A stretch of DNA of 64,000 bases from Candidatus Aquivivens invisus (GTDB lineage Bacteria; Omnitrophota; Gorgyraeia; Aquiviventales; Aquiviventaceae): the NCBI GenBank assembly GCA_001804415.1, contig MHGA01000006.1:14308-78307 (forward strand), given 5' to 3'. The position numbers were made by a program, and so were the translations under genes. A model generated the notes under the pieces. It saw only the letters and a program-made list of their open reading frames with translations, ran no database searches and had not been told where the DNA came from. Shown here piece after piece: positions 14,016-57,212 of this stretch (position 1 is its first letter; the number at the start of each line of letters is the position of its first letter).

Positions 14016-14336
14016 GTGATTCGACGCTCGCGTCGTGTCGTCATCATGGGGCTCGCCGTCTGTTGGAGCCTGAGCGGTCCGGCACAACCGGTGTCGGCAG
14101 ATGCCCTTGGGGATCTTGTTGGAGGGCTTGGGCAGCTGCTCATCGGCGCGTTTGCCATTCCGGTTGAAGCCATCCAGGGGACGCTCAACGGGCCGCCGAT
14201 TCTTGGGACCATCGGCGGCATCCTCAGCGGGACGGTCCATACGGTCGGTTCAACACTGGGCGGGGTGCTGCAGATCGCCAAATCCGTCGTCCCCCTCGCC
14301 ACCTCCCTGGTGCCATTTCTTCCCTGGGTTCTCTAG
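14016..14336 (+). CDS. Small secreted Gly-rich protein, divergent member of the small secreted paralog family (see 37489, 47084, 56874)
   Basis: SD AGGAGG 4 nt before GTG; signal peptide; shares PxEAIQG...G...GG..H.V block with paralogs. Confidence 0.55.
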   Translation: MIRRSRRVVIMGLAVCWSLSGPAQPVSADALGDLVGGLGQLLIGAFAIPVEAIQGTLNGPPILGTIGGILSGTVHTVGSTLGGVLQIAKSVVPLATSLVPFLPWVL

Positions 14337-14343
14337 CCCTTCC

Positions 14344-15195
14344 GTGACCGTGCATCGCACCCGGCTGTCAACCTACGCCAACTTCATCAAACTTGAGCAC
14401 ACGATTCTTTCTCTGCCGCTCATCTATGCGGGAGCCGTCGTGGGTGCGGCAGGGTGGCCCTCGATCCGGCTGGCCGGCCTGATCCTGCTTGCGGCGATCG
14501 GAGGACGGGTGATGGCGATGGGATTGAACCGCCTCATCGACGCCGCCATCGATGCGCGCAACCCCCGCACGAAGGGCCGCGAGCTGCCAAGCGGCACGAT
14601 GCGACCGCTTGAGGCGTGGGGGATCGTCGGACTGGCCGGCCTGCTCTATGCAGGCAGTGCGGCGGCGGTTGCGCCGATCTGCCTGATCTGGTCGCCGCTG
14701 CCGGTTGCGCTGTTTGTCCTGTATCCGTATCTGAAGCGATTCACCGCGCTCTCACACGTTGGACTCGGTCTGGCTTGGTCGATGGGCCCGCTCGGTGGAT
14801 GGTTGGCGACTGCGCAGTCGTTGGCGCACCTTGATCAGATCATGTGGCTGTGGCTGTTCGCCGTCTTGTGGGTGGCGGGGTTCGACGTGATCTACGCCAC
14901 CCTGGATGAAGCGTTCGACCGGCAGGAAGGGTTGCATTCGCTGCCTGCGCGGATGGGAAAAGACCGCGCCCTGCGAGTTGCCGCGTTGTTGCACGCCGCC
15001 GCGTTCATGGCTCTGGCCATCTTACAGCGCGACGTCCTGCGCTCACCCGTTGGCTGGCCGTGGCTGCTCGCCATCGCCGCCATTCTCATTTGGGAGCACG
15101 CCATCGCTCCCCGCCGCCCAGAGTTCGCCTTCTTCTACTTAAATGCCGCTCTCGGCTTCCTTGTCTTCGGTCTGGTTGCATCCGGCTTGAGATAA
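14344..15195 (+). CDS. UbiA-family prenyltransferase, probable menaquinone (futalosine-route) prenyltransferase MqnP-like
   Basis: NRLIDAAIDARNPRTKGRELPSG UbiA motif, 8-9 TM; adjacent to UbiX/UbiD homologs. Confidence 0.75.
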   Translation: MTVHRTRLSTYANFIKLEHTILSLPLIYAGAVVGAAGWPSIRLAGLILLAAIGGRVMAMGLNRLIDAAIDARNPRTKGRELPSGTMRPLEAWGIVGLAGLLYAGSAAAVAPICLIWSPLPVALFVLYPYLKRFTALSHVGLGLAWSMGPLGGWLATAQSLAHLDQIMWLWLFAVLWVAGFDVIYATLDEAFDRQEGLHSLPARMGKDRALRVAALLHAAAFMALAILQRDVLRSPVGWPWLLAIAAILIWEHAIAPRRPEFAFFYLNAALGFLVFGLVASGLR

Positions 15196-15216
15196 CGGCG
15201 CTCCTTATCCAATCTA

Positions 15217-15245
15217 TTGATAATATACATTCTATATAGTATAAT
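15217..15245 (+). promoter_or_regulatory. Canonical sigma-70 promoter TTGATA-17nt-TATAAT upstream of phd/yefM antitoxin
   Basis: -35 TTGATA 15217-15222, 17-nt spacer, -10 TATAAT 15240-15245, SD GGGAGGGAGAGG before ATG 15285; AT-rich island. Confidence 0.7.
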
Positions 15246-15284
15246 CATATTAGTGGAATTGAGTTGGTAGCAGGGAGGGAGAGG

Positions 15285-15551
15285 ATGAAGGAGATCACAG
15301 CTCTCGAGCTTCGGAAGCGCTTTGGGGAAGTCATGGAAGATGTTCGTTATCGCAAGGAGCCGTATCTCGTAAAGCGGAACGGACGCCCCATGATCGTGCT
15401 GCTTGATATCGATGCGTATCAGGCCGATGAAAGTCGCCGAAAGGAAGACGTCTTCATTGAAGACTATACCGAGGAGCGTCTTCAGGAATTCTTAGAGGAA
15501 GACCGCCTGGATCCCGGCGTGCAGGCCCGTGTGAATCGGCGTCTGCGATAA
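15285..15551 (+). CDS. Phd/YefM-family antitoxin
   Basis: MKEITALELRKRFGEVMEDV...PYLVKRNGRPMIVLLDIDAYQ typical YefM/Phd N-domain. Confidence 0.8.
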   Translation: MKEITALELRKRFGEVMEDVRYRKEPYLVKRNGRPMIVLLDIDAYQADESRRKEDVFIEDYTEERLQEFLEEDRLDPGVQARVNRRLR

Positions 15552-15983
15552 ATGGTCCGGGTCTTCCTGGATGCGAACGTGTATTTCGCTGGTTGTTATT
15601 CTGCGAAGGGGGCCTCGGCGCTCCTGCTGAAGCTGGCGGTGCGCAAACGCCTCCAAGTGGTGGCATCTCGGCTAGTATTGCGGGAAGCCGAGCGCAACTT
15701 GCATGCGAAAGCCGATCGCAAGGCTCTGCGCGTGTTTCATCGGTTCTTAGAGACTGCCACCCCGCGCATACTTCGAACGCCATCCGCCAAAACGCTCGCT
15801 GCCTACGAGACGATTATTCATCCGAAAGACGTCCCAGTGCTGGCTGCGGCCGTTGAAGCAAAGGTTGACTATCTGGTGACGCTGGACCGCCGGCATTTCT
15901 TTGCCCCCCTCGTCGAGGCCCGAATTAAATCGCCGCGCATTCTGGCCCCCGGCGACTTCCTACAGGAATGGCTGTCGAGATGA
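15552..15983 (+). CDS. PIN-domain (VapC-like) toxin
   Basis: FLDANVY PIN signature, TAAATG junction with antitoxin. Confidence 0.75.
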   Translation: MVRVFLDANVYFAGCYSAKGASALLLKLAVRKRLQVVASRLVLREAERNLHAKADRKALRVFHRFLETATPRILRTPSAKTLAAYETIIHPKDVPVLAAAVEAKVDYLVTLDRRHFFAPLVEARIKSPRILAPGDFLQEWLSR

Positions 15984-16219
15984 AACGTACAAAACGCGAA
16001 GTGGCGGACATCATTGACTCATTTTTATCAGGCGAGGGAGAGGAGTGGGACTGGGATGATTTTACCAGCATTCCAATTCACGATCCCGAGTTAAACAGAA
16101 TTCGTCTGAGGTGCGTTCAACTCGACAAAGAATTTCCTCCAGAGAAACGTGGCGAGTATTGTAATGCTCATGGAATGGACGTGTTGCGGGATTATGTGAA
16201 GCGATTACGGACGAAATAG
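15979..16219 (+). CDS. Small acidic hypothetical protein in low-GC island (80 aa)
   Basis: ATGA overlap with vapC stop; markedly AT-rich codon usage. Confidence 0.4.
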
Positions 16220-16226
16220 AGATCTG

Positions 16227-16790
16227 ATGGAGAGAATGATGCGCATTGTAGTCGGGATGACGGGGGCGTCGGGGGCGGTCTTCGGGGTGGAGTTTCTGCG
16301 GCGATGTCAGGCGGAGAAATACCTGATTCTGACGAAGTGGGGGCGGTACGTGCTGAAAGAAGAAACCGGCCTGACCGAACACCATCTAGCCGAGCATGTC
16401 AAACGCAGCTTTTCAGACGACGATCTCTCCGCGCCGTTTTCCTCAGGGTCGACGCCGTTCGATGCGCTGGTGATCGTGCCCTGCTCCGCCTCGACGATGG
16501 CCAAGCTCGCTGTCGGGATTGCCGATACCCTGCTGACAAGGGCGGCGATGGTCGCTCTCAAAGAACGGCGAAAGCTGATCATCTGCCTTCGCGAGACGCC
16601 GTTGTCCACCATCCACTTGGAACAGGCGCACAAGCTCTCGCAGGCCGGCGCCATCGTGATGCCGATTTGCCCGCCGTTCTATCACCGCCCCCAGACGATC
16701 GACGAGATGGTGAGCCAGTTCACCGAGAAGGTCCTGAGTCTCCTCGGATTCGAAACCTCGCTTGCTTGGAAAGCCGAAGCCCTTGAGTAA
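16227..16790 (+). CDS. ubiX: Flavin prenyltransferase UbiX family (MqnL-like in futalosine route)
   Basis: Flavoprotein fold motifs GMTGASGAV, PCSASTMAKLAVGIADTLLTRAA. Confidence 0.85.
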   Translation: MERMMRIVVGMTGASGAVFGVEFLRRCQAEKYLILTKWGRYVLKEETGLTEHHLAEHVKRSFSDDDLSAPFSSGSTPFDALVIVPCSASTMAKLAVGIADTLLTRAAMVALKERRKLIICLRETPLSTIHLEQAHKLSQAGAIVMPICPPFYHRPQTIDEMVSQFTEKVLSLLGFETSLAWKAEALE

Positions 16791-18548
16791 ATGGCTGATT
16801 TGCAATCCTTCCTCTCCCTCTTAGAACGCGAGGACCAACTCGCCCGCATCCGGGTGGAGGTCGATCCGGAGCTCGAGATCACCGAGATCGCCACGCGCGT
16901 GGTCAAGGAACGGGGGCCGGCGCTGTTGTTCGAGCGGGTGAAAGGCTCGGCCATCCCTCTGGCGATTAACATCTTGGGGACTGAGCGGCGCATCGAGCTC
17001 GCGCTCGGTCGGCACCCGCAAGAGGTTGGGGCCTCGCTGAAGCGCTTGATGGAAGCCGCGATGCCGCCTCGGCCCAAGCGGTTGCTCGAGGAATGGCGCA
17101 CCGTTGGCCGGGTGCTGTCGATGCCGCCCAGGCGGGTGCGTCGCGCGGCGTGCCACGACGTGGAAGAACCGCCCGACCTGGGGAAGCTGCCCATCATGAA
17201 ATGCTGGCCGAACGACGCGGGGCGGTTCATCACCTGCGGGATGGTGCTGACGCATGATCCCAAGACGGAGGTCCGGAACCTTGGCATCTACCGGATGCAG
17301 GTGGTCGGAGGCGATCAGGTGCTCATGCACTGGCAGATCCAGAAGGGCGGAGGATTCCACTATTGGAAAGCCGAGCAGCAGGGCAAGGCGCTGGCGGTCT
17401 CGGTCATCATCGGCGCAGATCCTCTCCTTTATATCGCTTCGGTCGCTCCGCTGCCTGAAGGGATTGACGAGCTGGCGTTCGCCGGATTTCTGGGAGGCCG
17501 GCGCATCCCGCTGGTGCATGGGAAGGCCACACCGACCGTCGCTCCCGCCGAGGCGGAGATCGTGCTGGAAGGTGTGGTGCCGCCTGATGAGCGCCTGCCC
17601 GAAGGGCCGTTCGGGGACCATTTCGGCCACTACTCCCATCCCGCGCCGTTTCCCGTGATGTGGGTTCAGACCATGACGCGCCGCGCCAAGCCGATTTATC
17701 TCTCGGCGGTCGTGGGCAAACCCCCTCAAGAGGACCGGTATATCGGCGACGCGGTGCAGGAGATGCTGCTGCCGATGATCCGGTTGATCCATCCGGAGCT
17801 GAAGGACCTGTGGGCCTATTACGAGGCCGGGTTTCACAGCCTGGCGGTGGCGGCGGTTGAGGAGCGGTACGGCAAGGAAGGGATGAAGACCGCCCTGGGG
17901 CTGCTGGGAACCGGGCAGATGAGCCTCACCAAGTGCCTCATCCTGGTGGATCCGGACGTCAACGCGCGCGACGCCAACGAAGTGCTGCGCGCCGTGCGCG
18001 ATCATTTCGATCCGGCGGAGGACTTTCTCTTGCTCCCTGGTGTCCCTTTTGATACGCTAGATTTTACGAGCCTGACCCCCAATCTGGGCAGCAAGATGGT
18101 GCTCGATGCCACCCGCGACGGGAAGGCATCCCCTCCAGGGGTTCCTCCAGTTGATCTGGAGGCTGTCCGGTGTCTGCATCCACGGATCCAAGCTGCCCGC
18201 ATCATCGGGGGATGTCTGGTGGCGGTCCAGGTCGAGGGCGAAGGCCGCTCGGTGGTGGAGGCGCTCGTTCAGGCGGATGCGTTGCGCGCCGTCAAGCTGA
18301 TCGCCGCGGTCAGCGCCGACGTGGACCTGCGCGAGGGCGAAAGCCTGTTGTGGGGGATCTTCACGCGGTTTGATCCCGCCCGCGACGTCGTCTTCACCGA
18401 GGTGGAGCTCCACGGAGGCTGGCCCATCCACCGAGGCCGCCTCGGCATCGATGCCACCTTCAAGACCGGATACCCTGATCCGATCGTGATGGATCCGGCA
18501 GTCGTCACACGAGTCACCCAACGATGGCCTCACTACTTCAAGGCGTAG
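16791..18548 (+). CDS. ubiD: UbiD-family decarboxylase (MqnM-like in futalosine route)
   Basis: 585 aa, UbiD family conserved blocks; starts 1 nt after ubiX stop. Confidence 0.8.
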   Translation: MADLQSFLSLLEREDQLARIRVEVDPELEITEIATRVVKERGPALLFERVKGSAIPLAINILGTERRIELALGRHPQEVGASLKRLMEAAMPPRPKRLLEEWRTVGRVLSMPPRRVRRAACHDVEEPPDLGKLPIMKCWPNDAGRFITCGMVLTHDPKTEVRNLGIYRMQVVGGDQVLMHWQIQKGGGFHYWKAEQQGKALAVSVIIGADPLLYIASVAPLPEGIDELAFAGFLGGRRIPLVHGKATPTVAPAEAEIVLEGVVPPDERLPEGPFGDHFGHYSHPAPFPVMWVQTMTRRAKPIYLSAVVGKPPQEDRYIGDAVQEMLLPMIRLIHPELKDLWAYYEAGFHSLAVAAVEERYGKEGMKTALGLLGTGQMSLTKCLILVDPDVNARDANEVLRAVRDHFDPAEDFLLLPGVPFDTLDFTSLTPNLGSKMVLDATRDGKASPPGVPPVDLEAVRCLHPRIQAARIIGGCLVAVQVEGEGRSVVEALVQADALRAVKLIAAVSADVDLREGESLLWGIFTRFDPARDVVFTEVELHGGWPIHRGRLGIDATFKTGYPDPIVMDPAVVTRVTQRWPHYFKA

Positions 18549-18574
18549 CCGACCGCCTTCAGCGCCGCGCGCGG

Positions 18575-19702
18575 ATGTCGAGAGCAGAGGCGCTGAAGCT
18601 CTTTGAGGCACGCGATCTCATCGGCCTCGGGCAATTGGCGAACGAGGTCAAGCAAGCCACATGGGGCGATCGCGCCCACTTTGTGATCAACCGCCAGATC
18701 AACCCTACGAACGTCTGCGTCCTGTCCTGCCGGTTCTGCGACTTCGCGACCAAGCGGGGACGCCCTAACGCCTACGAGATGACGATCCAGGACGTCTTAG
18801 ATCGCCTCAGCCCGGAGCTGCGGGAAGTCCACATCGTGCAGGGGCTGCATCCGGACTGGACGTGGGATTTCTACCTGGAGATGCTCCGCGCGATCAAGAC
18901 GAGCTTCCCCCGGATGCAGATCAAAGCCTGGACGGCGGTTGAGATTGACTATTTCTCCAAGAAGTTTCGCCTCTCGGTCGAAGAGGTCCTGGTGCAGATG
19001 AAGGAGGCGGGGCTCTCCGCCTTGCCCGGCGGGGGCGCGGAGGTGTTTTCCGAACGGGTGCGCAAGGCGCTGTTTCCCTTTAAAATCGGCGCGCCGAGGT
19101 GGCTGGAGATTCACCGGATCGCGCATCAGCTGGGCATCCCGACCAACGCGACCTTGCTGTACGGCCACATCGAGACGCGCGAAGAACGCGTGGATCACCT
19201 CCTGAAGCTTCGCGAACTCCAGGATGACACCGGCGGCTTCATGAGCTTCATCCCGTTGGCGTATCAAGTCGGCAAGACGCGCGTGGTCGAGCGCCAGGCG
19301 TCGGCGATCGAGGACCTCAAGACGATGGCGATCTCCAGGCTGCTCCTGGACAACATCCCCCACATCAAAGCCTACTGGGTGACGATGGGTGAAGAGACGG
19401 CGTCGATCGCCCTGAACTTCGGGGCCGATGATCTCGACGGGACGATCGGGGAGGAGCGGATCATGCATGCCGCGGATGCCGCAAGCCCGATTCGGCAGAC
19501 CCGCGAGCGGCTGGTGGAACTCATCCGAGCCTCCGGATGCGTGCCGGTGGAACGCGATGCCCTCTATCACGAGGTCGCGGTGTGCGACCCTTCGACTCGC
19601 GCCACGGCCTCTGGCCGTGGGCTCGCTCAGGATTCCGCCCCACGGGCGCAGGAAGAGGTGCCACGGGCTCTGCCCGTGGGGCTCCACAATGGCCACCGGT
19701 AA
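18575..19702 (+). CDS. Radical SAM menaquinone biosynthesis enzyme, MqnC/MqnE family (paralog 1; alternative start 18524); about 45-aa C-terminal extension encoded by hairpin repeats
   Basis: NPTNVCVLSCRFCDFA cluster motif, CofG/CofH-like fold. Confidence 0.75.
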   Translation: MSRAEALKLFEARDLIGLGQLANEVKQATWGDRAHFVINRQINPTNVCVLSCRFCDFATKRGRPNAYEMTIQDVLDRLSPELREVHIVQGLHPDWTWDFYLEMLRAIKTSFPRMQIKAWTAVEIDYFSKKFRLSVEEVLVQMKEAGLSALPGGGAEVFSERVRKALFPFKIGAPRWLEIHRIAHQLGIPTNATLLYGHIETREERVDHLLKLRELQDDTGGFMSFIPLAYQVGKTRVVERQASAIEDLKTMAISRLLLDNIPHIKAYWVTMGEETASIALNFGADDLDGTIGEERIMHAADAASPIRQTRERLVELIRASGCVPVERDALYHEVAVCDPSTRATASGRGLAQDSAPRAQEEVPRALPVGLHNGHR

Positions 19703-19736
19703 AGTCAGAAGTCAAAAGTCAGAAGTCGGAAGTACA
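19702..19736. repeat. Tandem heptanucleotide repeat (AAGTCAG)x5 (imperfect) between mqnC/E paralog 1 and mqnA
   Basis: aagtcag aagtcaa aagtcag aagtcgg aagtaca, followed by CT-rich run. Confidence 0.9.
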
Positions 19737-19766
19737 CTTCCCTCTTCCCCCTTCGCTCTTCCCCCT

Positions 19767-20522
19767 TTGACGGTGGCCCGCATTCCGTATCTCAACTGCG
19801 CGCCGTTTTTTGCCGGCCTTCCGCTCAAGCCAGGATGGGAGGTGGTCGACGTTGCGCCCAGGCGTTTAGGCCAGATGGCTGAGGAGGGCAAGTTCTTGGC
19901 GGGCGTGATGTCGCTGGCGGATTACCTGCGGTTGCAGGATCGCTTCGAGCGGATCGGGCCGCTGGGGGTGGCGGTGCGGGGACGGGTGGGCAGCGCGCTG
20001 CTGTTTTCGCGCAAACCCCTTCGGCAGCTGGACGGCGCCTGCGTCGCGGTGACGGACGAAACGTCGACGACCGCCCTGTTGCTTCGCGTGATCCTGGAAC
20101 AGCGTTACCACCTGACGGTTCGACTCGCGCCGCACGCCCACCCGACCCAGCAGGATGCTGACGCGGTGCTGCTGATCGGCGATGAGGCCTTGCGGTTTGG
20201 CAGCGTCAACCGGCTCTATCCGTTTGAGATTGATGTCGCCTTTGAATGGTGGTTGTGGCAGCATCTGCCCTGCGTCTTCGCCGTGTGGGCGATCCGCGCG
20301 GACGCCGGCGCGAGCACCAAGCGGGAGGTGAGCGAAGCCCTCCAGCGCACCCTGGCGGTCAACCTGCGTCGCCTCGATGAGCTCGTCATCCAACCGGCTG
20401 CCTCCCTGCACGTTCCGGCCGAGGACCTCACGATGTATCTGAGCCGGTTCATCTATCGTCTCAGCGCCGAGGAGGAGCGCGCCATCCAGCGCTTCGCCCA
20501 ACTGTCCCAATCCATGGCATGA
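19767..20522 (+). CDS. mqnA: Chorismate dehydratase MqnA (start uncertain: TTG 19767/GTG 19773, or ATG 19689 if heptamer tract is translated)
   Basis: RIPYLNCAPF MqnA signature, PF02621-type fold. Confidence 0.75.
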   Translation: MTVARIPYLNCAPFFAGLPLKPGWEVVDVAPRRLGQMAEEGKFLAGVMSLADYLRLQDRFERIGPLGVAVRGRVGSALLFSRKPLRQLDGACVAVTDETSTTALLLRVILEQRYHLTVRLAPHAHPTQQDADAVLLIGDEALRFGSVNRLYPFEIDVAFEWWLWQHLPCVFAVWAIRADAGASTKREVSEALQRTLAVNLRRLDELVIQPAASLHVPAEDLTMYLSRFIYRLSAEEERAIQRFAQLSQSMA

Positions 20523-21604
20523 GCCCCGTCTGCTGCGACTCGCTCGAGGAGAAGGTGTTCGCCGGGGAGCGGCTGACGCGCGAGGAAGGCCGCTCCCTCT
20601 TGCAAGACGCCTCCCTCCTTGAGCTAGGTCAGCTCGCCAACTCCGTGCGCTCCCGCCACAATCCCGACCCCGCCGTGACGTTTGTGATCGACTCGAATCC
20701 GAACTACACGAATGTGTGCATCACCGACTGCGTCTTCTGCGCGTTCTACCGCAAGCCCGGCTCGAAGGACGGCTATGTCCTGACGGTGGACCAAGTCATG
20801 GAGAAGGTCCGTCGGGCCGTTGAGTTGGGGGCGACGACCGTCTTGCTGCAAGGAGGGCACAACCCGCAGATTCCCCTCAGCTATTACCTGGCGTTGGTCT
20901 CCGAAACCCGCCGCCGGTTTCCGCAGGTGACCCCGCATTTCTTCACCGCCTCGGAAGTGACGACGATGGCGCAGGTCTCCGGGCTGCCGATCGGCGATGT
21001 GCTCAGACAGCTCAAAGACGCGGGGCAGTCCACCTTGCCGGGCGGGGGCGCGGAGATCCTCTCCGATCGCATTCGGCGGAGGCTCAGTCCGAAGAAAGGC
21101 GGAGCCGAGGCGTGGTTATCGGTCCATCGCGAAGCGCACCGCCTCGGCTTCAAATCGACCGCGACCATGATGTTCGGTCACCTCGAGGACGACGACGATC
21201 TCCTCCAACACCTTGAGCACATCCGCGGGCTGCAAGATGAGACGAGAGGGTTCACCGCTTTTATCCCGTGGAGCTTCAAGCCCGGCAACACCCCGCTCGA
21301 GAAACCGATCCCGCATCACGCCGACCCAACCCGTTACCTTCGGATCATCGCGCTCTCGCGACTCTACCTCGACAACGTCCCGCACATCCAGGCTTCCTGG
21401 TTCTCTGAAGGCAAGAAGACCGGCCAGGTCGCTCTGCACTTCGGGGCCGACGATTTCGGAGGGACCTTGTTCGAGGAGAACGTGCACGCCGCCACCAACT
21501 TTATCAACACAACGAGCGTTGAGGACCTCGTCACCGTGATCCGTGAAGCGGGATTTCGGCCGGTTCAACGCACCACGTTGTACGAACGCATCAAGGAGTG
21601 GTAA
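20519..21604 (+). CDS. Radical SAM menaquinone biosynthesis enzyme, MqnC/MqnE family (paralog 2)
   Basis: NYTNVCITDCVFCAF motif; ATGA overlap with mqnA. Confidence 0.75.
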   Translation: MSPVCCDSLEEKVFAGERLTREEGRSLLQDASLLELGQLANSVRSRHNPDPAVTFVIDSNPNYTNVCITDCVFCAFYRKPGSKDGYVLTVDQVMEKVRRAVELGATTVLLQGGHNPQIPLSYYLALVSETRRRFPQVTPHFFTASEVTTMAQVSGLPIGDVLRQLKDAGQSTLPGGGAEILSDRIRRRLSPKKGGAEAWLSVHREAHRLGFKSTATMMFGHLEDDDDLLQHLEHIRGLQDETRGFTAFIPWSFKPGNTPLEKPIPHHADPTRYLRIIALSRLYLDNVPHIQASWFSEGKKTGQVALHFGADDFGGTLFEENVHAATNFINTTSVEDLVTVIREAGFRPVQRTTLYERIKEW

Positions 21605-21606
21605 GG

Positions 21607-22077
21607 ATGGGACAGGAGATTCCGCTTTCCAACGGTGTGGGCGAGGTCATGGCGCCGCAGACGCTCGTGACGGCCTTCGTCATCGCGCCGGACGGCAGCA
21701 TTCGGTTGGATGCCGGCGCGCTGCATGGACGCAGCCAGATCGAGGGCCAGGTGACGATGGTCTCGCGGCAGGAGCTGGCGGGTGAGTCCCAGCCGGTGCT
21801 CGTCGTGTGGGTGGCCCTGGAGCTTGACGGGGCCAATCGGCCGGTGCGGTACAAAGGCTTGTCGGTGTGCCAGATCCTCGTGAACTCGAAGCAGCAGATG
21901 GGCTACAAGAGCCTCTCCGAGCACGTCAACCGCATGGGCGAAGCGATTCGAGGAGACATCAACATTGCGCGTCTCAGCCCCGAGCAGCGGCGCGCGGTCA
22001 AGCAACAACTCGTGGCCTTGGGCGCTTCGTTCTGGGACGCGTCCGACCCGGTGCTCAAGCAGGCCCTTGAGTCGTGA
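21607..22077 (+). CDS. Hypothetical protein (156 aa), translationally coupled to downstream BioB-like gene
   Basis: SD AAGGAG upstream; ATGA overlap at 22074. Confidence 0.45.
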   Translation: MGQEIPLSNGVGEVMAPQTLVTAFVIAPDGSIRLDAGALHGRSQIEGQVTMVSRQELAGESQPVLVVWVALELDGANRPVRYKGLSVCQILVNSKQQMGYKSLSEHVNRMGEAIRGDINIARLSPEQRRAVKQQLVALGASFWDASDPVLKQALES

Positions 22078-23048
22078 TGGAGTGGTCCTCCATCATCTCG
22101 CGCTCGCTGACGGACGAGGCGATTGCCCGCGAGGAAGCCCTCGACATCCTGCGGCTGCCTGACGAGCAGATCGTGGAGGTCTTACGCGCCGCCTTCGAGG
22201 TGCGCCAAGCCACCTACGGCAAGCGGGTGAAAATCTGCCTGCTGCAAAACGCCCGCAGCGGGCTGTGCCCCGAGGATTGCCACTACTGTTCCCAGTCCGC
22301 CGTATCCACCGCGCCGATTGCGAGGTACCTGCTGCTTCCCCTTGACCAGCTGATGGAGGGGGCTCGTCGCGCGCGCGAGGCCGGGGCAAGACGCTACTGC
22401 ATGGTGACCAGCGGACGGGGCCCCAGCGAAGAAGACATCGCGCACTTCTGTGAAGCCGCCCGACTGATCAAATCCCAGTATCCCCTGGAGATCTGCGTGT
22501 CGCTGGGCATCCTGTCGGGGACGCAGGCCCACCAACTCAAAGAGGCCGGTGTGGGGTGGGTGAACCACAACCTGAACACCAGCGCTCGGCATCATCCCGC
22601 CATCTGTACGACCCACACGTATCAGGATCGCCTCCAAACCGTCCGGAATGTCCAGCAGGCCGGGCTGATGACGTGCAGCGGAGGCATCGTGGGCATGGGC
22701 GAAACGGACGAGGATCTTCTCGAACTCGCCCTGGCCCTGCGGGAGTTGCGCGTCAACTCGCTGCCGGTCAATTTCCTCAATCCGATCCCCGGCACGCCGC
22801 TGGAGGCGTGCCGCGCGCTGACCCCCATGCGGTGTCTGAAAATCCTCTGCCTGTTCCGGTTTCTGAATCCGAAAAGCGATCTGCGCGCCGCGGGAGGCCG
22901 CGAGGTCAATCTGCGCTCCCTCCAGCCGCTGGCGCTGTATCCCGCCAATTCCATCTTCGTGGACGGTTACCTGACCACGCCGGGCCAGGCCGCGCAGGCC
23001 GCCCGGCAGATGGTCAGCGACATGGGGTTTGAGCTGGAGGAGTCATGA
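22074..23048 (+). CDS. bioB: Biotin synthase-like radical SAM protein
   Basis: CPEDCHYCSQS plus BioB-type 2Fe-2S cysteines (RYCMVTSGRG, EICVSLGIL, MTCSGGIVG). Confidence 0.6.
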   Translation: MMEWSSIISRSLTDEAIAREEALDILRLPDEQIVEVLRAAFEVRQATYGKRVKICLLQNARSGLCPEDCHYCSQSAVSTAPIARYLLLPLDQLMEGARRAREAGARRYCMVTSGRGPSEEDIAHFCEAARLIKSQYPLEICVSLGILSGTQAHQLKEAGVGWVNHNLNTSARHHPAICTTHTYQDRLQTVRNVQQAGLMTCSGGIVGMGETDEDLLELALALRELRVNSLPVNFLNPIPGTPLEACRALTPMRCLKILCLFRFLNPKSDLRAAGGREVNLRSLQPLALYPANSIFVDGYLTTPGQAAQAARQMVSDMGFELEES

Positions 23049-23181
23049 TCCCCCCACCTCCTGAGGGCTGCCAATGGCAGCCCATGCAACGCGAGACAGC
23101 GCGCGAGGGGATGGCGAAATTTGCAGAGACAGAGCATGGTTGCATTGCCACGCCATTGGTGTGGCATCAGGAGGTGGGGGG

Positions 23182-23721: not shown

Positions 23722-23732
23722 CTGCCGCGCGC

Positions 23733-30746: not shown

Positions 30747-30788
30747 CTGCGTGCTCCTGGTTGTTCGTGGTACCCACCCGTAGGGCGG

Positions 30789-30954: not shown

Positions 30955-30976
30955 GCGGCGTTTCGGCGTGCGCCGT

Positions 30977-34819: not shown

Positions 34820-34842
34820 CGTGATCCCTCCGTAACGGGAAG

Positions 34843-47431: not shown

Positions 47432-47487
47432 GCGCGTACTGTAGCATGAGCAGCCTCCGAACGCAAGCGCTTGTTATAATAGGGAGG

Positions 47488-49635
47488 ATGCGAAGGAAAG
47501 AGTGGCTCTTGGTGATCATGGTCGGGGGGATCGCCGGTGCCATCTGGTTGGCCGGCACACGTCCCTGGCCGCACACGGAGTCAGTCCCTATGGTGCAGGA
47601 ACATCCGGGTCGTCAGCCGAACCGTCTCATTAAGGAAAAGAGTCCCTACCTCTTACAACACGCCTACAACCCGGTGGCCTGGTATCCGTGGGGCGACGAG
47701 GCGCTCGCCACAGCTGCGCGTGAGGACAAACCCATTCTCCTGTCGATCGGCTACTCCACCTGCTACTGGTGCCATGTGATGGAGCAGGAGTCGTTCGAAG
47801 ATCCGGAAATCGCCCGGCTCATGAACGAGTGGTTTGTATCCATCAAGGTGGATCGGGAGGAGCGGCCTGATCTTGACGCCCTGTACATGACGGCAGTGCA
47901 GGCGATGTCGGGGCAGGGCGGATGGCCCATGACCGTCTTTCTGACTCCCGAGGGCAGGCCGTTCTGGGGCGGGACGTATTTCCCCCCCGAGGACGCGTAC
48001 GGTCGTCCGGGATTCAGGACGGTCCTGCGCTCGATCCACGAGGCCTGGCAAGCCAAACGCGCCGATCTCCTGGCCACCAGCCAATCAATCACCCAAGCGC
48101 TCCAAGCCGAGACCCAGCGCCTGACGACGGTGCCGTTAACGCGCGAGACCCTCCAGGAGGCGGTTGCGCAGTTGAGCGCCCAATACGATCCCGACCACGG
48201 CGGATTTGGACCGGCCCCGAAGTTCCCCCGACCGCACGCGCTCTCCTTCCTCTTGCGCGTGTGGTATCGGGATCGTGACCCCAAGCCCTTGGAGATGGTC
48301 GAGACGACGCTTCAGGCGATGGCTCGCGGCGGCATCCACGATCATCTCGGCGGCGGGTTCCATCGGTATTCCACCGACGAGCGGTGGCTCGTCCCCCATT
48401 TCGAGAAGATGCTCTACGACCAAGCCTTGTTGGCCCTGGCGTATCTTGAGGCGTTTCAGATTACCGGCAAGGCCGACTACGCGCAGGTCGCCCGAGGCAT
48501 CTTCACCTATGTGCTGCGCGATCTGCGCGATCCGCAGGGGGCCTTCTTGTCCGCAGAGGACGCCGGCGAGGTCGGCAAGGAAGGGGAGTTTTACGTGTGG
48601 AGTCCATCACAGGTTGAGGCCGTCTTGGGAGTGGAGGGCGCGGCGCCGTTCAACCAGGCGTATGACGTGACTGACCAGGGAAATTTTGAGGGGCATAGCC
48701 TCCTTCACCTGAACCAACAGTTATCAGCCGTTGAGCACCTTGCCTTGGCACGCGCCAAGCTGCTGCAAGAGCGCAACCGGCGCCCGAGGCCGCACCGTGA
48801 CGACAAGATCCTCACCGACTGGAACGGCTTGATGATCGGCGCGCTGGCCTATGGCGCGAAGGCACTTGGGGAACCGGCTTACGGCGAGGCGGGCGCAGGC
48901 GCCGCGACGTTTCTTCTCGATCGACTGCAGCGTTCGGGGCAACTGCTCCACCGCTATCGGGACGGCCAGGCCGAGATCCACGCGTTTCTTGATGACTACG
49001 CGTTCCTCAGTTGGGGGTTGCTTGCGTTGTATGAGGCCACGGGTGAGGCGCGCTGGCTGTCGGAGGCCAAACGACTGATGACGCAAGCGCTGCCACTCTT
49101 CTGGGACGATGCCGCAGGCGGGTTGTTCCTGAGTGGTGCTAAGAATGAAACCCTGATCGCCCGCACCAAGGAGCTGTACGACGGCGCGATTCCGTCAGGC
49201 AACTCAGTGGCCGCCCTGGTGTTGGTGCGCTTGAGTCAACTGACCATGGACGAAGCGATGCAGGACAAGGCGAAGCGGCTCATTGAAGCCTTTTCGGGAG
49301 AGGTCGCCCGCGCTCCGCACGCGTTTCCCCAATTTCTGATCGCGGTGGACGGATGGCTGGGTCCCTCGCAGGAGATCGTCATTGCGGGTGATCCCGATGC
49401 CCCGGCGACCCGCCGGATGCTGGAGCACGTCCACCGCCGGTTCCTGCCTCGGGCCTCGGTCGTCTTGCATCCACCAGGGGAAGCGGGCCGGACGATTGAA
49501 TCGCTCATCCCCTTTGTGGCCAATCAGGTCCAGCTCAACGGCCAGCCCACGGCCTATGTGTGTGAGAACTACCTCTGCAAGCTGCCGACGACGGATGTGG
49601 CAAAGCTGGTGGAACTGCTTGATGCGATCCGGTGA
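47488..49635 (+). CDS. Thioredoxin-domain protein YyaL/DUF255 with six-hairpin glycosidase-like domain
   Basis: [12 protein letters not shown] thioredoxin-like motif, about 715 aa. Confidence 0.8.
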
Positions 49636-51968: not shown

Positions 51969-52403
51969 ATGACGATCAGCCGATCCCACGTCAGCGAAGC
52001 GGTGGCCCAGCTCATGCCCAACATCATCCGGGGCGTGCAGCTGGACTTTTTTGTCAAGCGCCGGGTCACCCAGACCCAGTTGCTCATGCTGCTGGCGATC
52101 CGAGGATACGGACATCCCTCAATGGGTCGTCTGGCCGATGGCCTCCACGTGAAGATGCCCACCGCCACCGGCATCGCGAGCCGCTTGGCCCGTGCGGGGT
52201 ACGTCCGGCGCGCCCCAGGAGAAACCGATCGCCGGCAAGTCCTGGTGCAGCTCACGCCGAGGGGCGAGCAGTTTATCCGCGATTTTCAATCCGTCATCCG
52301 CCGGCGCTGGGAGGACGTGCTGGGTTCGCTCAACGCCGGGGAGCTGGCGGCGTTCCACCGGGTGGTTACCAAACTCTCCGCATCGCTGCAAGGAACCCTC
52401 TAA
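51969..52403 (+). CDS. MarR-family transcriptional regulator
   Basis: wHTH MarR core, 144 aa. Confidence 0.8.
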   Translation: MTISRSHVSEAVAQLMPNIIRGVQLDFFVKRRVTQTQLLMLLAIRGYGHPSMGRLADGLHVKMPTATGIASRLARAGYVRRAPGETDRRQVLVQLTPRGEQFIRDFQSVIRRRWEDVLGSLNAGELAAFHRVVTKLSASLQGTL

Positions 52404-52407
52404 CCTC

Positions 52408-53658
52408 ATGCGCATCCTGTGTGGGATCGTCCTTCTGCTGTTCATGCCCTCGGGGATTTCCTCCGCCTCTGACGTCTTGACGCTCGAAGAGTGTTATGAG
52501 CTCGCGCTGGCGCGCAGCGAGGAGCTCCTGATCCACCAGGAGAAGATCCGGGAAGCCGAAGGGCGGTTCCTCGAGGCGCTCGGCACCGTGATGCCCACCG
52601 CGACGTTCGAATGGTCTCGCAAGCGGCAGGACGGCAACAACGCCTCGGCGTTCAGCCTCCAGGATATCCCAGAGCGAAAATTTGTCTTCACGCAGCCGAT
52701 CTTCTCCGGCTTCAAGGAGTTTGCGGCGTTGGCCGCCTCGCGCGCCCAGCGCCGCGAGCGCGCGTTCGAGCGCCGGCGGGCGGAGCACCTGTTGTTCCTC
52801 GACGTCGTGGACGCGTTCTCCCTGTTGAGGCAGCAGCGGGAAGATTTGGCGACGCTGGAGGCGATCCGCCTGGCGCTGGTGGAGCGACTCGATGAGCTGG
52901 CTGCGCGGCAGCGGCTGGGCCGCTCAAGGCCGAGCGATCGGGTCAGCGCCGAGGCGCGGCTTCGGCGCGACGAAGCTGAGATCGAACGCGTCCGGCGGCA
53001 GGAGGCGACGGCGCGTCACCTGCTTGAGTTCCTCACCGGTCTGCCGCAGATCAGCGGACTCGCGGACGATGCGGCGGGCGCGCCGATGCTCGACGACGAG
53101 GAGACGTGCGTCCAGCGCGCACACCTGCGTCCGGATGTGCAAGCGGAGGAGGAGGCCTGGCGGATCGTCAAGCACGAGGTGGTGGTGGCCCAATCCGGGC
53201 TGTGGCCCGACGTCGATGTGGAGGGCAACTACTACACCCGTCGGGTCGGGAACGCCTCGGGGGTTGATTGGGACGTCCTCTTGAAGGTGGAGGTGCCGAT
53301 CTTCAAGGGCAGCGAGGTGCTCGGGGATATCCAGACGGCCTCGGCGAAAGCCCGTCAGGCAAAATGGCGTTTCGAGCAGGTTCACCGGGAGGCGCAACGC
53401 GAGATTCGGGACGCCTACTCGGACGTGCAGTTGGCGATCGCCCGGCAACAGGCCTTGGATCGCGCGTGGAAAGCCGCCGAGGACAACTACCGGCTCCAAC
53501 TGGACGACTACCGTCTCAACATCGTCAATAACCTCGACGTCCTCCAGACGCTTCAGGAGCTTCAAGATGTGCGCCGCGACCTCATCGCGGCGACGTACGA
53601 CGTGCAACGGCTCTACCAACGCTTGCAAATCGCCACCGCTCATGATCCCACCACCTGA
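52408..53658 (+). CDS. Outer-membrane efflux protein (TolC-like OMF)
   Basis: Signal peptide plus two OEP repeats; 416 aa. Confidence 0.75.
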   Translation: MRILCGIVLLLFMPSGISSASDVLTLEECYELALARSEELLIHQEKIREAEGRFLEALGTVMPTATFEWSRKRQDGNNASAFSLQDIPERKFVFTQPIFSGFKEFAALAASRAQRRERAFERRRAEHLLFLDVVDAFSLLRQQREDLATLEAIRLALVERLDELAARQRLGRSRPSDRVSAEARLRRDEAEIERVRRQEATARHLLEFLTGLPQISGLADDAAGAPMLDDEETCVQRAHLRPDVQAEEEAWRIVKHEVVVAQSGLWPDVDVEGNYYTRRVGNASGVDWDVLLKVEVPIFKGSEVLGDIQTASAKARQAKWRFEQVHREAQREIRDAYSDVQLAIARQQALDRAWKAAEDNYRLQLDDYRLNIVNNLDVLQTLQELQDVRRDLIAATYDVQRLYQRLQIATAHDPTT

Positions 53659-53757
53659 GCATCAAGGCAGCTCCGGTGCGGCGATCCCGGGCTGCCTTGA
53701 TACGCGTGGGGGGCTTAACCGTTGGCCCCGCCTTCGGCGGGGCGCACAGGTGGGGGG

Positions 53758-56700
53758 ATGACCCTCTCTGATCTGTCGATCAAGAAACCGGTGTTCGCCT
53801 GGATGCTCATGGCCGGGCTGATCGTCTTCGGCACGATCAGTTTTAAGCGACTGGGCGTGAGCCAGATGCCGGATGTCGAGTTTCCGGTCGTGTCCGTCGA
53901 TCTGCGATGGGAGGGTGCCGCCCCGGAGGTGATGGAGACCGACGTCGTGGATGTCACGGAAGACGTCATCACGAGCATCCAAGGCATCCGGGATATCTCT
54001 TCCTCGATCCGCCAGGGACAAGCGACGATCACCATTGAATTCGATCTGGAGCGCGACATCGACGTCGCCGTGCAGGAGGTGCAGACCAAGCTCGCCCAGG
54101 CGCAGCTGCGCCTGCCACGCGAGCTGGATCCGCCGATCGTGACCAAGGTCAATCCGCAGGATCAACCCATCATGTGGCTGGGCGTTTCAGGCGACGTGCC
54201 GAAGCGCGAGCTGATGGAGTACGTGCAGGACCACCTGAAGGATCAGTTTCAGACGATCAGCGGCGTGGGTGAAATCTTCCTGGGCGGATTTCTCGAGCGC
54301 AACCTGCGCGTCTGGATCGATGCGGACAAGCTGGAGGTCGCTCAGTTGACCATCGAGGATGTCATCACGGCGATCCAACGGGAGCACGCGGAGCTGCCGG
54401 CCGGCCGCCTGGAGACCGGCGCGAAAGAGTTCAACGTGCGCGCCATGGGCGAGGCGAGCAGCGTGGAGGAGTTCGGCAGGATCCTCATCCCGAGCCGCGG
54501 GGGCCAGCCGATCTACACCCCGATTGCCTTGAAGGATGTGGCGGTCATCGAGGACGGGCTGGCGGACCAACGGCGCATCTCCCGCATCATGGGCGAGACG
54601 GCGGTGGGCTTAGGGATCCGCAAGCAGCGCGGGGCGAACGACGTGGAGGTCGCCCGGCGGGTGCGCCGGAAAATGGCGGAGGTGGCGCAACGACTGCCTC
54701 AGGGGATCCAGCTCGGCGTCAACTTTGACCGGACGCGCTTCATCGAGGACTCGATCAACGAGCTCACCTTCACGCTGATCCTCTCGGCCATCCTGACGTC
54801 CCTGGTCTGCTGGGCGTTCCTCGGGTCGTGGAGTGCGACGCTCAACATCCTCATGGCGATCCCGACCTCGATCGTCGGATCGTTCATCTGTTTGTATTTC
54901 CTCGGCTTCACCCTCAACACCTTCACGCTGCTCGCACTCTCCCTGGCGATCGGCGTGGTGGTGGATGACGCCATCATGGTACTGGAAAACATCGTGCGCC
55001 ACCGCGAGCAGGGCCTCGCGCGGATCGAGGCGGCCAGGCTGGGCGCCCGGCAGATCACCTCGGCGGCGCTGGCGGCCACGCTGTCGATCATCGCGATCTT
55101 CCTGCCGGTGGCGTTCATGGCCGGCCTCATCGGGAAATTTTTCTTCGAATTCGGCATGACCATCTCCATCGCGGTCGCACTCTCCCTCCTGGAAGCCTTG
55201 ACGCTGGCCCCGATGCGCTGCGCCCAGTTCCTTCGGATCGGCGAGCGGCGCACGCAATTCGGCAAAGCGGTGGAATCGGCGTTTCGGATCCTGGCGGTTC
55301 GCTATCACGCGGCGCTGATCTGGTCCCTGCGGAATCGGCGAATGGTGCTCCTGGCCTCCGCGGCGATCTTCGTCGTGTCGTTGGGGGTGCTGCCGTGGCT
55401 GCGGAAGGAGTTCGTGCCGCCGCAGGATCAAAGCATGTTTTTGGTCCGGCTGCAGACGCCGGTCGGCTCGTCGATCGAGTTCACGGATGAGCAATTCAAG
55501 CTGGCGGAGCAGTTCGCGATGAGCCGCCCGGAGATCAAGCGCTATTTCGGAGCCATCGGCGGCTTCGGCGGCGGGGAGGTGAACGCGGGCATCTTGTTCA
55601 TCACCCTCCATCCGCCGCGCCAGCGCCGGATCGTGCCGCCGGACAGACATCCCCTGTCGCAACGCGAGTTGATGGCGCTCTTCCGGAAGGAGCTCAACGC
55701 CATTCCCGATGTGAAGGCCTCGATTCAAGACCTGAGCCTCAGCGGGTTCTCCGCCCAGCGGGGATTTCCCATTGAGTTCAGCATCCGCGGACCGGACTGG
55801 GAGCAGCTCGGCGTCATCGCGCAGGAGATGGAACGGCGGATGAGCCGAAACCCCCTCATGGTGGACGTCGACAGCGACTACTTGACCGGCGTGCCGGAGG
55901 TGCGCGTGCGGCCCGACCGCCGGCAGGCGGCGGCGCGCGGTGTCAGCATGGCGACGATCGCGCGGACCATCAACGCGCTCATCGGGGGGGAGCGGGTGGC
56001 CAAGTACACCCGCGGAGGCCGGCGCTACGACGTGCGGGTGCGGTTGATGCCGACCCAGCGTCTGCAGGCCGATGACATCGAGCGGTTATGGGTCTGGAAC
56101 CGCCACGGCGAGCTGGTCCAACTGAAGGACATCGTGACGATCACCGAAAATCCGTCGCTGTTGACCATCACGCGCAAGAACCGCGAGCGGGCCATCAGCG
56201 TTTTCTCGAACATCGCCCCGGGCCGGTCGCAGGCGGAGGCATTGCGGGAGGTGCAGCGGATCGCCAAGGACGTCCTGCCGCAGGGCTATCACGCGGTCTT
56301 CGGCGGCAGCGCGCAGACGTTCCGCGAGTCGTTTCAAAGCCTCCTGTTTGTCCTGTGGCTCGGCGTCCTCGTGGCGTACATGGTGCTGGCGTCGCAGTAC
56401 AACAGCTACCTCCATCCCGTCCTGGTGCTCTTAGCACTTCCGTTCAGCGTCTCCGGCGCCCTGATGGCGCTCTGGGTGGGAGGGCAGTCGCTGAACATTT
56501 ACAGTTTCATCGGACTGATCTTGCTGATGGGGATCGTCAAGAAAAACTCCATCCTGTTGGTGGACTTCACCAACCAGCTTCGGGAACAAGGGCAGGGCGT
56601 CCATGAGGCGCTCCTGAACGCGTGCCCCATGCGGCTGCGTCCGATCCTCATGACGTCCATCTCGACGGTGGCGGCCGCTGTCCCTCCGGCCCTGGCCGTG

Positions 56701-56880
56701 GGGCCTGGGGCGGAGACGCGCATCCCGATGGCGGTCGCGGTCATCGGCGGGGTGCTGCTCTCAACCCTCCTGACCTTGTTTGTGGTGCCGTGCGCGTATA
56801 GCCTCATCCCTGAGAAAAACAAAGGCCCTTGGGGATTCCCAAGGGCCTTGTCGATTGCGCAGGAAGCAAAAGGCTATTGA
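53758..56880 (+). CDS. RND efflux transporter (AcrB/CzcA superfamily)
   Basis: 1040 aa, 12-TM RND topology with two large periplasmic loops. Confidence 0.85.
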   Translation: MTLSDLSIKKPVFAWMLMAGLIVFGTISFKRLGVSQMPDVEFPVVSVDLRWEGAAPEVMETDVVDVTEDVITSIQGIRDISSSIRQGQATITIEFDLERDIDVAVQEVQTKLAQAQLRLPRELDPPIVTKVNPQDQPIMWLGVSGDVPKRELMEYVQDHLKDQFQTISGVGEIFLGGFLERNLRVWIDADKLEVAQLTIEDVITAIQREHAELPAGRLETGAKEFNVRAMGEASSVEEFGRILIPSRGGQPIYTPIALKDVAVIEDGLADQRRISRIMGETAVGLGIRKQRGANDVEVARRVRRKMAEVAQRLPQGIQLGVNFDRTRFIEDSINELTFTLILSAILTSLVCWAFLGSWSATLNILMAIPTSIVGSFICLYFLGFTLNTFTLLALSLAIGVVVDDAIMVLENIVRHREQGLARIEAARLGARQITSAALAATLSIIAIFLPVAFMAGLIGKFFFEFGMTISIAVALSLLEALTLAPMRCAQFLRIGERRTQFGKAVESAFRILAVRYHAALIWSLRNRRMVLLASAAIFVVSLGVLPWLRKEFVPPQDQSMFLVRLQTPVGSSIEFTDEQFKLAEQFAMSRPEIKRYFGAIGGFGGGEVNAGILFITLHPPRQRRIVPPDRHPLSQRELMALFRKELNAIPDVKASIQDLSLSGFSAQRGFPIEFSIRGPDWEQLGVIAQEMERRMSRNPLMVDVDSDYLTGVPEVRVRPDRRQAAARGVSMATIARTINALIGGERVAKYTRGGRRYDVRVRLMPTQRLQADDIERLWVWNRHGELVQLKDIVTITENPSLLTITRKNRERAISVFSNIAPGRSQAEALREVQRIAKDVLPQGYHAVFGGSAQTFRESFQSLLFVLWLGVLVAYMVLASQYNSYLHPVLVLLALPFSVSGALMALWVGGQSLNIYSFIGLILLMGIVKKNSILLVDFTNQLREQGQGVHEALLNACPMRLRPILMTSISTVAAAVPPALAVGPGAETRIPMAVAVIGGVLLSTLLTLFVVPCAYSLIPEKNKGPWGFPRALSIAQEAKGY

Positions 56881-57212
56881 AGGAGCTGCGTCCCGCCTTC
56901 CGGAAGGGGGACGTCGATCTGCGGGATGGGGAAGGTTGCCACGTGCAACGCCCCGCCGACGGTCTGCCCGATGCCGTTGAAGAGCCCTTCGCCGATGCCG
57001 AGGAAGAAGTTCCCTCCACCCTGGATGGCTTCCGCCGGTTCGCTGAAGATCTCCGTCCAGCCCAGCAGCCCGTTCTTGAGGCCGTAGACGAACTTGCCCT
57101 TTACCTTGCCAAGATAGTCCACCTCTTGCGTCCACGGGCTTGCCGCAAACGCCGCAATGGGCGCTGCCACCAACGCGAGGACCACTGCGATTGCCCCTAA
57201 CCGTCTGGTCAT
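56874..57212 (-). CDS. Small secreted protein, paralog family member
   Basis: Signal peptide; GKFVYGLKNGLLGWTEIFSEPAEAIQG...VGGALHVATFPIP. Confidence 0.6.
   Translation of the reverse strand: MTRRLGAIAVVLALVAAPIAAFAASPWTQEVDYLGKVKGKFVYGLKNGLLGWTEIFSEPAEAIQGGGNFFLGIGEGLFNGIGQTVGGALHVATFPIPQIDVPLPEGGTQLLQ

Follow-up and report, generated by a model that had tools for sequence, protein, structure and literature searches.

The TIGR04073 family (NCBIfam) is curated yet wholly uncharacterised. It occurs in Omnitrophota, Verrucomicrobiota, and other phyla, and its curated name is "exosortase system-associated protein, TIGR04073 family," which rests on phylogenetic profiling. When we searched the literature for the accession, we found no mention of it, and "exosortase-associated" phrases appeared only in papers titled on other subjects. 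A second system that turned out to be relevant is the ATG_C region of the eukaryotic lipid-transfer protein VPS13, in which an antiparallel pair of helices, about 75 amino acids in size, occurs twice (Levine 2022, PMC7613979). Here we describe four small genes, which we call c1, c2, c3, and c4, from a 64,000-nucleotide stretch of Candidatus Aquivivens invisus (Omnitrophota; contig MHGA01000006.1 of assembly GCA_001804415.1, forward-strand positions 14,308 to 78,307). We will refer to this whole stretch as the window, and all coordinates are positions within it (Table 1). Judging by their sequences, the four proteins are diverged paralogs of one superfamily, namely TIGR04073 in the broad sense, and c1, c2, and c4 belong to two sister subfamilies (c2/c4 and c1) that are not recognised by current annotation.

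An initial annotation of the window had noticed a conserved block in the four proteins and suggested that they resemble TIGR04073. We agree on both counts. In a search with hidden Markov models (HMMs), TIGR04073 was the only significant NCBIfam match for all four proteins, with scores of 96.6 bits for c3, 34.2 bits for c2, 30.8 bits for c4, and 23.3 bits for c1 (for c2, c4, and c1, E = 2e-8 to 5e-5, with c1 at 5e-5). No other NCBIfam family matched c1-c4 with E below 0.1, and no Pfam model covers them or 93 of their relatives. The curated cutoff for TIGR04073 is 50 bits. Only c3 exceeds this, so c3 is a member of the family in the strict sense and c1, c2, and c4 are not. Pairwise comparisons with BLASTP also link the four copies: c2 and c4 are 52% identical (E = 3.5e-30), c1 and c4 are 38% identical (E = 4e-6), and c3 and c4 are 27% identical (E = 7e-4). 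All four proteins have the architecture of the superfamily, that is, about 100-150 amino acids with a signal peptide (as judged by eye), a single domain of about 75 residues, and nothing else.

The three subfamilies differ in how well they are represented. For c3, we found 435 homologs with 70-80% identity across the domain; in the c3 family, the mean column identity is 58% and many charged residues are invariant. For c4, we found 136 homologs, every one of which is unnamed or annotated as "hypothetical." All 31 of the c2/c4-type sequences that we checked match TIGR04073 (best E = 5.3e-11), but none of them reaches the cutoff, which accounts for the "hypothetical" labels. When we aligned the profile of the c2/c4 subfamily (31 sequences) to that of the c3 family (28 sequences) with hhalign, the match scored 97.5% (E = 7.9e-12 across 94 columns). 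c2 retains the residues that are invariant in the c2/c4 group. Among the proteins and loci that we compared, there was no closer ortholog of c2, and all of the matches from the search with c4 were nearer to c4. As the initial annotation stated, c1 is the most divergent of the four, and it lacks the GW and TFP motifs. It has few close relatives: a profile search of 1.84 billion representative sequences found 74 proteins, of about 100-110 amino acids, and these grade into canonical TIGR04073-type sequences.

The four open reading frames (ORFs) are at the locations and on the strands that were first proposed for them. Public gene callers predict identical proteins, and in an exact-sequence look-up, these proteins were on record in metagenome-assembled genomes of Omnitrophica WOR_2, such as GWA2_63_20. 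In GenBank, each of the four is labelled "hypothetical protein." The start codon of c1 is GTG at 14016, which is preceded by AGAGGAGG as a strong and correctly spaced Shine-Dalgarno sequence. For c2, the start is ATG at 37929, rather than 37953, because AGGAGG is well spaced before it, and for c4, the start is ATG at 57212, with GAGGAGG at the right spacing. c3 has no Shine-Dalgarno sequence at normal spacing upstream of its ATG (47431), but its N terminus agrees with those of its orthologs and with public gene calls. (The only GGAGG upstream of c3, at 47454-47458, has the right distance to an out-of-frame ATG at 47447, which opens an overlapping frame, 47145-47576; the region concerned is 47445-47458.) As compared to orthologs from a sister species, the ratio of nonsynonymous to synonymous substitution rates (dN/dS) is 0.24 for c1 (L098 in our numbering of loci), 0.13 for c3 (L018), and 0.16 for c4, so these three are coding genes under purifying selection.

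All four proteins begin with a basic n-region and a hydrophobic stretch, followed by an A-x-A-type cleavage site (VSA/D, ALA/K, SHA/A, and AFA/A). These signal peptides were judged by eye, and AlphaFold places a helix at the N-terminal segment. c1-c4 lack a lipobox cysteine, and they also lack a PEP-CTERM or other C-terminal sorting signal. The initial view of an expanded family of exported proteins is supported, as there are three diverged subfamilies within the window, and related genomes hold several copies as well. An HMM built from c1-c4 did not identify a fifth copy among 928 six-frame ORFs of at least 40 amino acids from the window. In other genomes (L047, L051, L064, L012, L018, L021, and L027), two family genes are also found close together, at distances that range from a few hundred bases up to about 10 kb, and those in L047, L051, and L064 are tandem or near-tandem pairs. 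Local clustering of paralogs is therefore common in this family.

Could the similarity between the copies, above all that of c1, be a by-product of glycine-rich low complexity? In that case the four would not be paralogs. Some of the comparisons with c1 were indeed weak: the pairwise alignments of c1 with c3 and with c2 had E values of only about 0.02, a profile of c1 from just 7 sequences matched the c3 family with 7% probability, and against an HMM of c3 only, c1 scored no better than shuffled sequences (62/1000). But with a profile of 40 c1-type sequences, hhalign gave 94.3% against the c3 family (E = 9.5e-8 across 65 columns) and 81% against c2/c4, and both alignments were in register. Also, 28 of the 40 c1-type members match TIGR04073 individually, and the search with the c1 profile reaches canonical TIGR04073-type sequences. 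Finally, against a family HMM that was built without c1, the mature c1 protein scored 15.9 bits, which is above all 1000 of its composition-preserving shuffles (mean -1.6 bits, maximum 8.8 bits). These shuffles, and the profile alignments that keep the register, indicate that the similarity is not confined to a low-complexity glycine segment. Given the shuffling controls and the purifying selection (dN/dS of 0.13-0.24), we consider a low-complexity artefact to be ruled out; as an explanation, it is already largely refuted and wildly improbable.

We used AlphaFold2 to predict the structures of c3 and c4, and both models show a helical hairpin. For c3 (93 sequences), the average predicted local distance difference test (pLDDT) was 79, with helices at residues 29-58 and 60-88 and then a proline-rich tail. 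For c4 (105 sequences), pLDDT was 90.4 and the predicted template modelling score was 0.74, with helices at 33-64 and 69-92; the invariant ASPW motif forms a short N-terminal helix as well, and the C-terminal tail is placed confidently. The mature protein, of 78-123 amino acids, is predicted to form a single hairpin, about 60 residues long, of two antiparallel helices. The residues of helix 1 that are invariant across the subfamilies are K, G (+4), N (+7), G-W (+11/12), and E; in helix 2 they are a G-x3-G-x3-G ladder, T, and G-G, and a T-F-P-x-P cap follows. Along each helix these residues form a stripe of small residues, with the invariant Gly and Asn lying on one face. These stripes would let the two helices pack very closely, and if so, the glycines are structural instead of low complexity.

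The G-x3-G ladder might also suggest that these are secreted peptides which assemble into pores through glycine zippers, as bacteriocins or toxins do. The hairpin has a generic structural likeness to those of alpha-pore-forming toxins, and c4 has a very weak match to lactococcin G-alpha (E = 0.64). However, that match falls short of significance, and a double-glycine leader, an immunity gene, and a dedicated exporter are all absent. The genes also show housekeeping synteny and purifying selection across phyla. We think that a pore-forming role is very unlikely.

While the invariant positions are shared, the other positions differ sharply: they are charged in c3, rich in Gly, Ser, and Thr with few charges in c4, and almost uncharged in c1. 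For mature c3, the grand average of hydropathy (GRAVY) is 0.02, and the hydrophobic moment of helix 1 is 0.65-0.68. For mature c4, GRAVY is 0.13, with a single charge in helix 2. Mature c2 has a GRAVY of -0.53 and a net charge of about +10, with a basic linker and tail. At the other extreme, mature c1 has just 4 charged residues in 78 amino acids and a GRAVY of 1.07, and its hydropathy is borderline for a transmembrane segment. Averaged over 28-40 members per subfamily, the hydrophobicity of helix 2 is 0.60-0.68, its hydrophobic moment is 0.41-0.47, and its content of Gly, Ser, and Thr is 31-35% in all three subfamilies; it has 11-12 bulky hydrophobic residues and 1.7-3.1 charges per roughly 30 residues.

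To our surprise in terms of the families involved, the only PDB sequences that matched the profile of the family were from VPS13. Specifically, when we compared the 105-sequence profile to 177,635 PDB sequences, the only matches with E of 10 or less were VPS13C (E = 1.7e-5) and VPS13A (E = 1.2e-3). In VPS13C, two tandem stretches (3436-3478 and 3527-3578) align to identical columns of the profile, which correspond to the end of helix 1, the loop, and helix 2. A segment that hardly differs between the two human proteins, at about 3550-3584 of VPS13C or 2993-3027 of VPS13A, is described as an amphipathic helix that is needed for binding to lipid droplets, and mutating a single residue abolishes this binding (Kumar et al. 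2018, PMC6168267). The helix-2 part of the matched stretch contains this segment, as judged by sequence and approximate numbering (the numbering of the chain appears to be native). The ATG2_C helices of VPS13C also bind membranes with packing defects (PMC12081312, PMC13430412). The physico-chemical properties of the VPS13 helix are close to those of helix 2 of the family: its hydrophobicity is 0.45, its moment is 0.47, 32% of its residues are Gly, Ser, or Thr, and it has 4 charges.

The match to VPS13 in the PDB search comes from the c2/c4 subfamily. Against the c2/c4 and whole-family HMMs, the 48-residue fragments of VPS13 outscored all 2000 of their shuffles (z = 10-16); against the c3 and c1 HMMs, z was about 2.5-3. 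When we compared the fragments to 18,950 NCBIfam models, TIGR04073 was the only match (E = 6.7e-4 and 1.8e-3). With hhalign, the fragments scored 94% (E = 1.4e-7) against c2/c4 and 63% against c3, with the register unchanged. These follow-up tests are not independent of the search, because the fragments were picked for matching. If the resemblance reflects common ancestry, then TIGR04073-type proteins might be a free-standing bacterial counterpart of ATG_C/ATG2_C, and possibly its evolutionary source; from the periplasm, they would sense or bind lipid-packing defects in the envelope membranes of diderm bacteria, with specialised paralogs in Omnitrophota. We offer this idea tentatively, and we are more doubtful of it than inclined towards it.

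As to function, our best guess is that the hairpin binds membranes peripherally, as a module in the periplasm. This could well be so, although we stop short of calling it probable. The hairpin would act on those faces of the envelope membranes that border the periplasm. With its bulky hydrophobic residues, its polar face of Gly, Ser, and Thr, and its few charges, helix 2 would enter lipid where the packing is loose, much as the matching helix of VPS13A and VPS13C does on lipid droplets and damaged lysosomes. In general, such glycine-rich helices have greater stability in a membrane or at its surface than in water. The paralogs might suit different settings in the envelope: c3 would work with VanY and the PF05552 membrane protein, and c2 within a cluster of peptidoglycan-related lipoproteins, while c1 is probably embedded more deeply and c4 might be a constitutive stand-alone gene.

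Several observations weigh against membrane binding or against the link to VPS13. Profiles of only c3 or only c1 had no match to VPS13 in the PDB (c3 matched nothing there, and the matches for c1 were weak and unrelated, with a best E of 0.09), and the first repeat of VPS13C does not match TIGR04073. In Pfam, ATG_C did not match the bacterial proteins (the four copies and 93 relatives), and the VPS13 fragments matched no model. Among solved structures, there was no specific match to the hairpin, and the fold searches were non-specific. The packing of helices against each other is enough to yield an amphipathic pattern. The model of c4 is a compact and confident monomer with an ordered C-terminal tail, which would suit a folded soluble domain equally well. 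The strong conservation of c3, with its many invariant charges, is easier to reconcile with one particular protein partner than with generic binding to lipid. We did not find experimental work on any member of the family in the literature.

These last points lead to the main rival, which is that the hairpins bind not lipid but specific envelope proteins, as small periplasmic adaptors or regulatory subunits. The partners of c3 might be the co-transcribed VanY, the PF05552 protein, or both, and those of c2 might be the peptidoglycan-binding or glycine-zipper lipoproteins (Table 1). We compared the neighbourhoods of c3 and its relatives using one genome per species, and we considered the 28 closest loci of the Omnitrophota type (L018-L045). 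In 17 of these 28 loci, as well as in L001-L008, the c3 ortholog is followed by the PF05552 gene. VanY is downstream in 21 of the 28, including 5 without a detectable PF05552 gene in between, and L001-L004 also have the trio of c3, PF05552, and VanY. Overall, the order c3-(PF05552)-VanY is kept in most of about 22 related species of Omnitrophota. This conservation and the short intergenic gaps favour an adaptor, as do the many invariant charges of the c3 family and its mean column identity of 58%, the 12-35 nt between c2 and its lipoprotein neighbours, and the compact model of c4, which suggests a folded domain. On the other hand, the linkage of c3 with VanY is lost in more distant relatives; the synteny is restricted to one clade of Omnitrophota. 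In Verrucomicrobiota, an ispE-like gene is immediately after the c3-family gene in 28 loci, and a TatC-like gene is just upstream in 13. Moreover, c4-type genes are monocistronic with unrelated neighbours. Adaptors for specific proteins are possible, but we rate them as less likely than not.

Table 1. Locations and descriptions of the four copies and of nearby features
Feature	Position	Strand	Description
c1	14016-14336	+	106-aa putative exported protein; hydrophobic third subfamily of the TIGR04073 superfamily
c2	37489-37929	-	146-aa putative exported protein of the c2/c4 subfamily; basic Pro/Thr/Lys-rich linker and basic C-terminal tail
c3	47084-47431	-	115 aa; canonical TIGR04073 member
c4	56874-57212	-	112-aa putative exported protein of the c2/c4 subfamily; mature N terminus ASPW, C-terminal DVPLPEGG
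PF05552 "conserved TM helix" membrane protein	46353-47027	-	Pfam MS_channel_1st_1, 78.8 bits; 56 nt downstream of c3
VanY-type D-Ala-D-Ala carboxypeptidase	45547-46344	-	Pfam VanY, 83.7 bits; third gene of the c3 unit, 8 nt after the PF05552 gene
PG_binding_1 lipoprotein	37965-38411	-	Pfam, 70.3 bits; immediately upstream of c2, 35-nt gap
Gly-zipper (YMGG/Omp) lipoprotein	37099-37476	-	Pfam Gly-zipper_YMGG, 32.2 bits; immediately downstream of c2, 12-nt gap
Intrinsic-terminator-like hairpin	56822-56849	-	25 nt after the c4 stop; 12-pair stem with 8 GC pairs, then TGTTTTTCTC
AT-rich divergent intergenic region between c4 and the NAD kinase gene	57213-57348	.	Read from the sequence; likely c4 promoter and Shine-Dalgarno sequence
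Perfect 16-bp inverted repeat	13930-13969	+	cccccacaccaattgt / acaattggtgtggggg; between the gene for a 513-aa membrane protein and c1

Only c3 has conserved neighbours. The initial annotation placed every copy next to envelope genes; this is correct for c3, whose association with PF05552 and VanY is conserved, and for c2, which lies between two lipoprotein genes. It does not hold for c4, whose proximity to an RND pump is incidental, or for c1, which heads a menaquinone cluster.

The two lipoprotein genes that flank c2 are downstream of an amidase and another peptidoglycan-binding protein. The glycine-zipper lipoprotein ends with C-P-x-G ... C-P-x-H, and such a Cys/His pair is unusual in an exported lipoprotein. 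Just upstream of this peptidoglycan-lipoprotein cluster, at 30009-36174, is a cluster of membrane-related genes: a BaxI-like gene (30009-30746), two tandem SPFH/Band 7 genes (30977-32916), a CitMHS transporter, and an MscS-type channel (35020-36174).

c4 forms a transcription unit of its own, and in other genomes, c4-type genes have unrelated neighbours. In the sister species (L018), c4 is still adjacent to the NAD kinase gene (NADK), and the order there is NADK-c4-AAA33. We rejected a link between c4 and the RND pump: the two genes are convergent, c4 has its own terminator, and the adjacency is incidental because the operon is missing at that spot in the sister species and the neighbours of c4 vary. 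The terminator-like hairpin of c4 lies inside the convergent ORF of the RND pump, no more than 60 nt from its end, and the stops of the two genes overlap by 7 nt. The pump belongs to a MarR-OEP-RND (ACR_tran) operon at 51969-56880 that lacks a gene for a membrane-fusion (HlyD-type) adaptor; at the corresponding position in L018, the whole operon is absent. Further along, at 58218-59735, a single 505-aa ORF is a fusion of AmmeMemoRadiSam system protein B (residues 47-313) with protein A (residues 334-502).

The stop codon of c1 is about 8 nt before the start of a UbiA-family gene, so c1 heads a UbiA/futalosine-type menaquinone unit, and this arrangement is kept in the sister species. The region from 14344 to 25258 holds a futalosine-type menaquinone set: UbiA, a UbiX-like flavoprotein, UbiD, two CofH_C radical-SAM genes, and two VitK2_biosynth/MqnA-like genes. 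This set is interrupted by a PhdYeFM/PIN toxin-antitoxin pair (15264-15983). Upstream of c1 is a gene for a 513-aa multi-pass membrane protein (12388-13929) that has no match in Pfam or NCBIfam. The inverted repeat between the two genes is not a classic terminator, as it lacks a T-run.

Given the curated name of TIGR04073, c1-c4 might instead be accessory components or substrates of a PEP-CTERM/exosortase sorting system. Consistent with this, there are proteins with PEP-CTERM-like tails in related loci from Omnitrophota and Verrucomicrobiota, two of which are within about 5 kb of c3 orthologs. (These tails, such as VLPEPSSLVLVGLGGLGLALRRRLRGR, are at L029:5193-5684 on the - strand, L031:6267-6956 on the - strand, L066:7588-8433 on the - strand, and L079:3472-4041 on the + strand.) But the search for exosortase or PEP-CTERM genes that the initial annotation proposed came up empty in the window: among the ORFs that we examined within the window, we found neither a PEP-CTERM tail nor an exosortase-like match. 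c1-c4 themselves have no such sorting signal, as mentioned above, and across about 100 loci we did not see conserved adjacency to exosortase genes. On the evidence of these 64 kb and those loci, a role in this sorting system seems improbable.

What does this mean for the family? The four copies are new members of a known but uncharacterised family, including two subfamilies that annotation has missed. The true extent of TIGR04073 exceeds its curated model, two sister subfamilies are systematically labelled "hypothetical," and several specialised copies can occur together in 64 kb of a single genome. Beyond this, we gained a confident structural model and the hypothesis of a membrane-binding helical pair that is related to the lipid-droplet-binding helix of VPS13. 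The likeness to VPS13 and ATG_C is the single element that could lend importance to these proteins. If the link to VPS13 is correct, a bacterial periplasmic family would be tied to a module that acts in lysosome repair and in the Parkinson-related biology of VPS13C. If the proteins are counterparts of ATG_C, a function would be assigned to a widespread "hypothetical" family, and there would be a second periplasmic module of ancestral type, beside the AsmA/TamB-like groove, for the origin of the eukaryotic bridge-like lipid transporters. If the link is false, then this is an ordinary expansion of a family of small envelope proteins.

Compared with described systems, c1-c4 are closest to the TIGR04073 family, with which they have in common their small size, their export, a single domain of 75 positions, and the motifs K-L-x-R-G-x-x-N-x-x-T-G-W-x-E-I-P and T-F-P-x-P. 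They differ in that the c2/c4 group has its own invariant mature N terminus (ASPW) and tail (D-V-P-L-P-E-G-G), c1 is nearly uncharged and lacks the Trp and the TFP cap, and the exosortase context is not seen in the window. The bacterial glycine-zipper envelope proteins (Pfam Gly-zipper_Omp, YMGG, and OmpA) are also small envelope proteins with G-x3-G ladders, and one of them adjoins c2. However, c1-c4 have no lipobox cysteine, their predicted fold is a long two-helix hairpin, and the glycine-zipper models PF13488, PF13441, and PF13436 matched neither c1-c4 (E of 1 or less) nor the 93 relatives (E of 10 or less).

In the papers on VPS13 and ATG_C that we read, there was no mention of bacterial relatives of ATG_C. 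The ATG_C/ATG2_C region of VPS13 and ATG2 shares with these proteins a unit of about 75 residues and an antiparallel amphipathic helical pair (as predicted for c3 and c4), an order-specific match of the form T-G-x-x-x-I-x-x-P-x-E ... F-F-x-G-I-G-x-G-L ... T-x-G-G, and similar physico-chemistry in helix 2. The match is carried mainly by the c2/c4 subfamily, and its sequence is compatible with either homology or convergence. Also, c1-c4 are not bridge-like (RBG) lipid-transfer proteins: they are free-standing, exported single units of 106-146 amino acids with signal peptides, whereas the VPS13 module is cytosolic and is part of a giant lipid-bridge protein.

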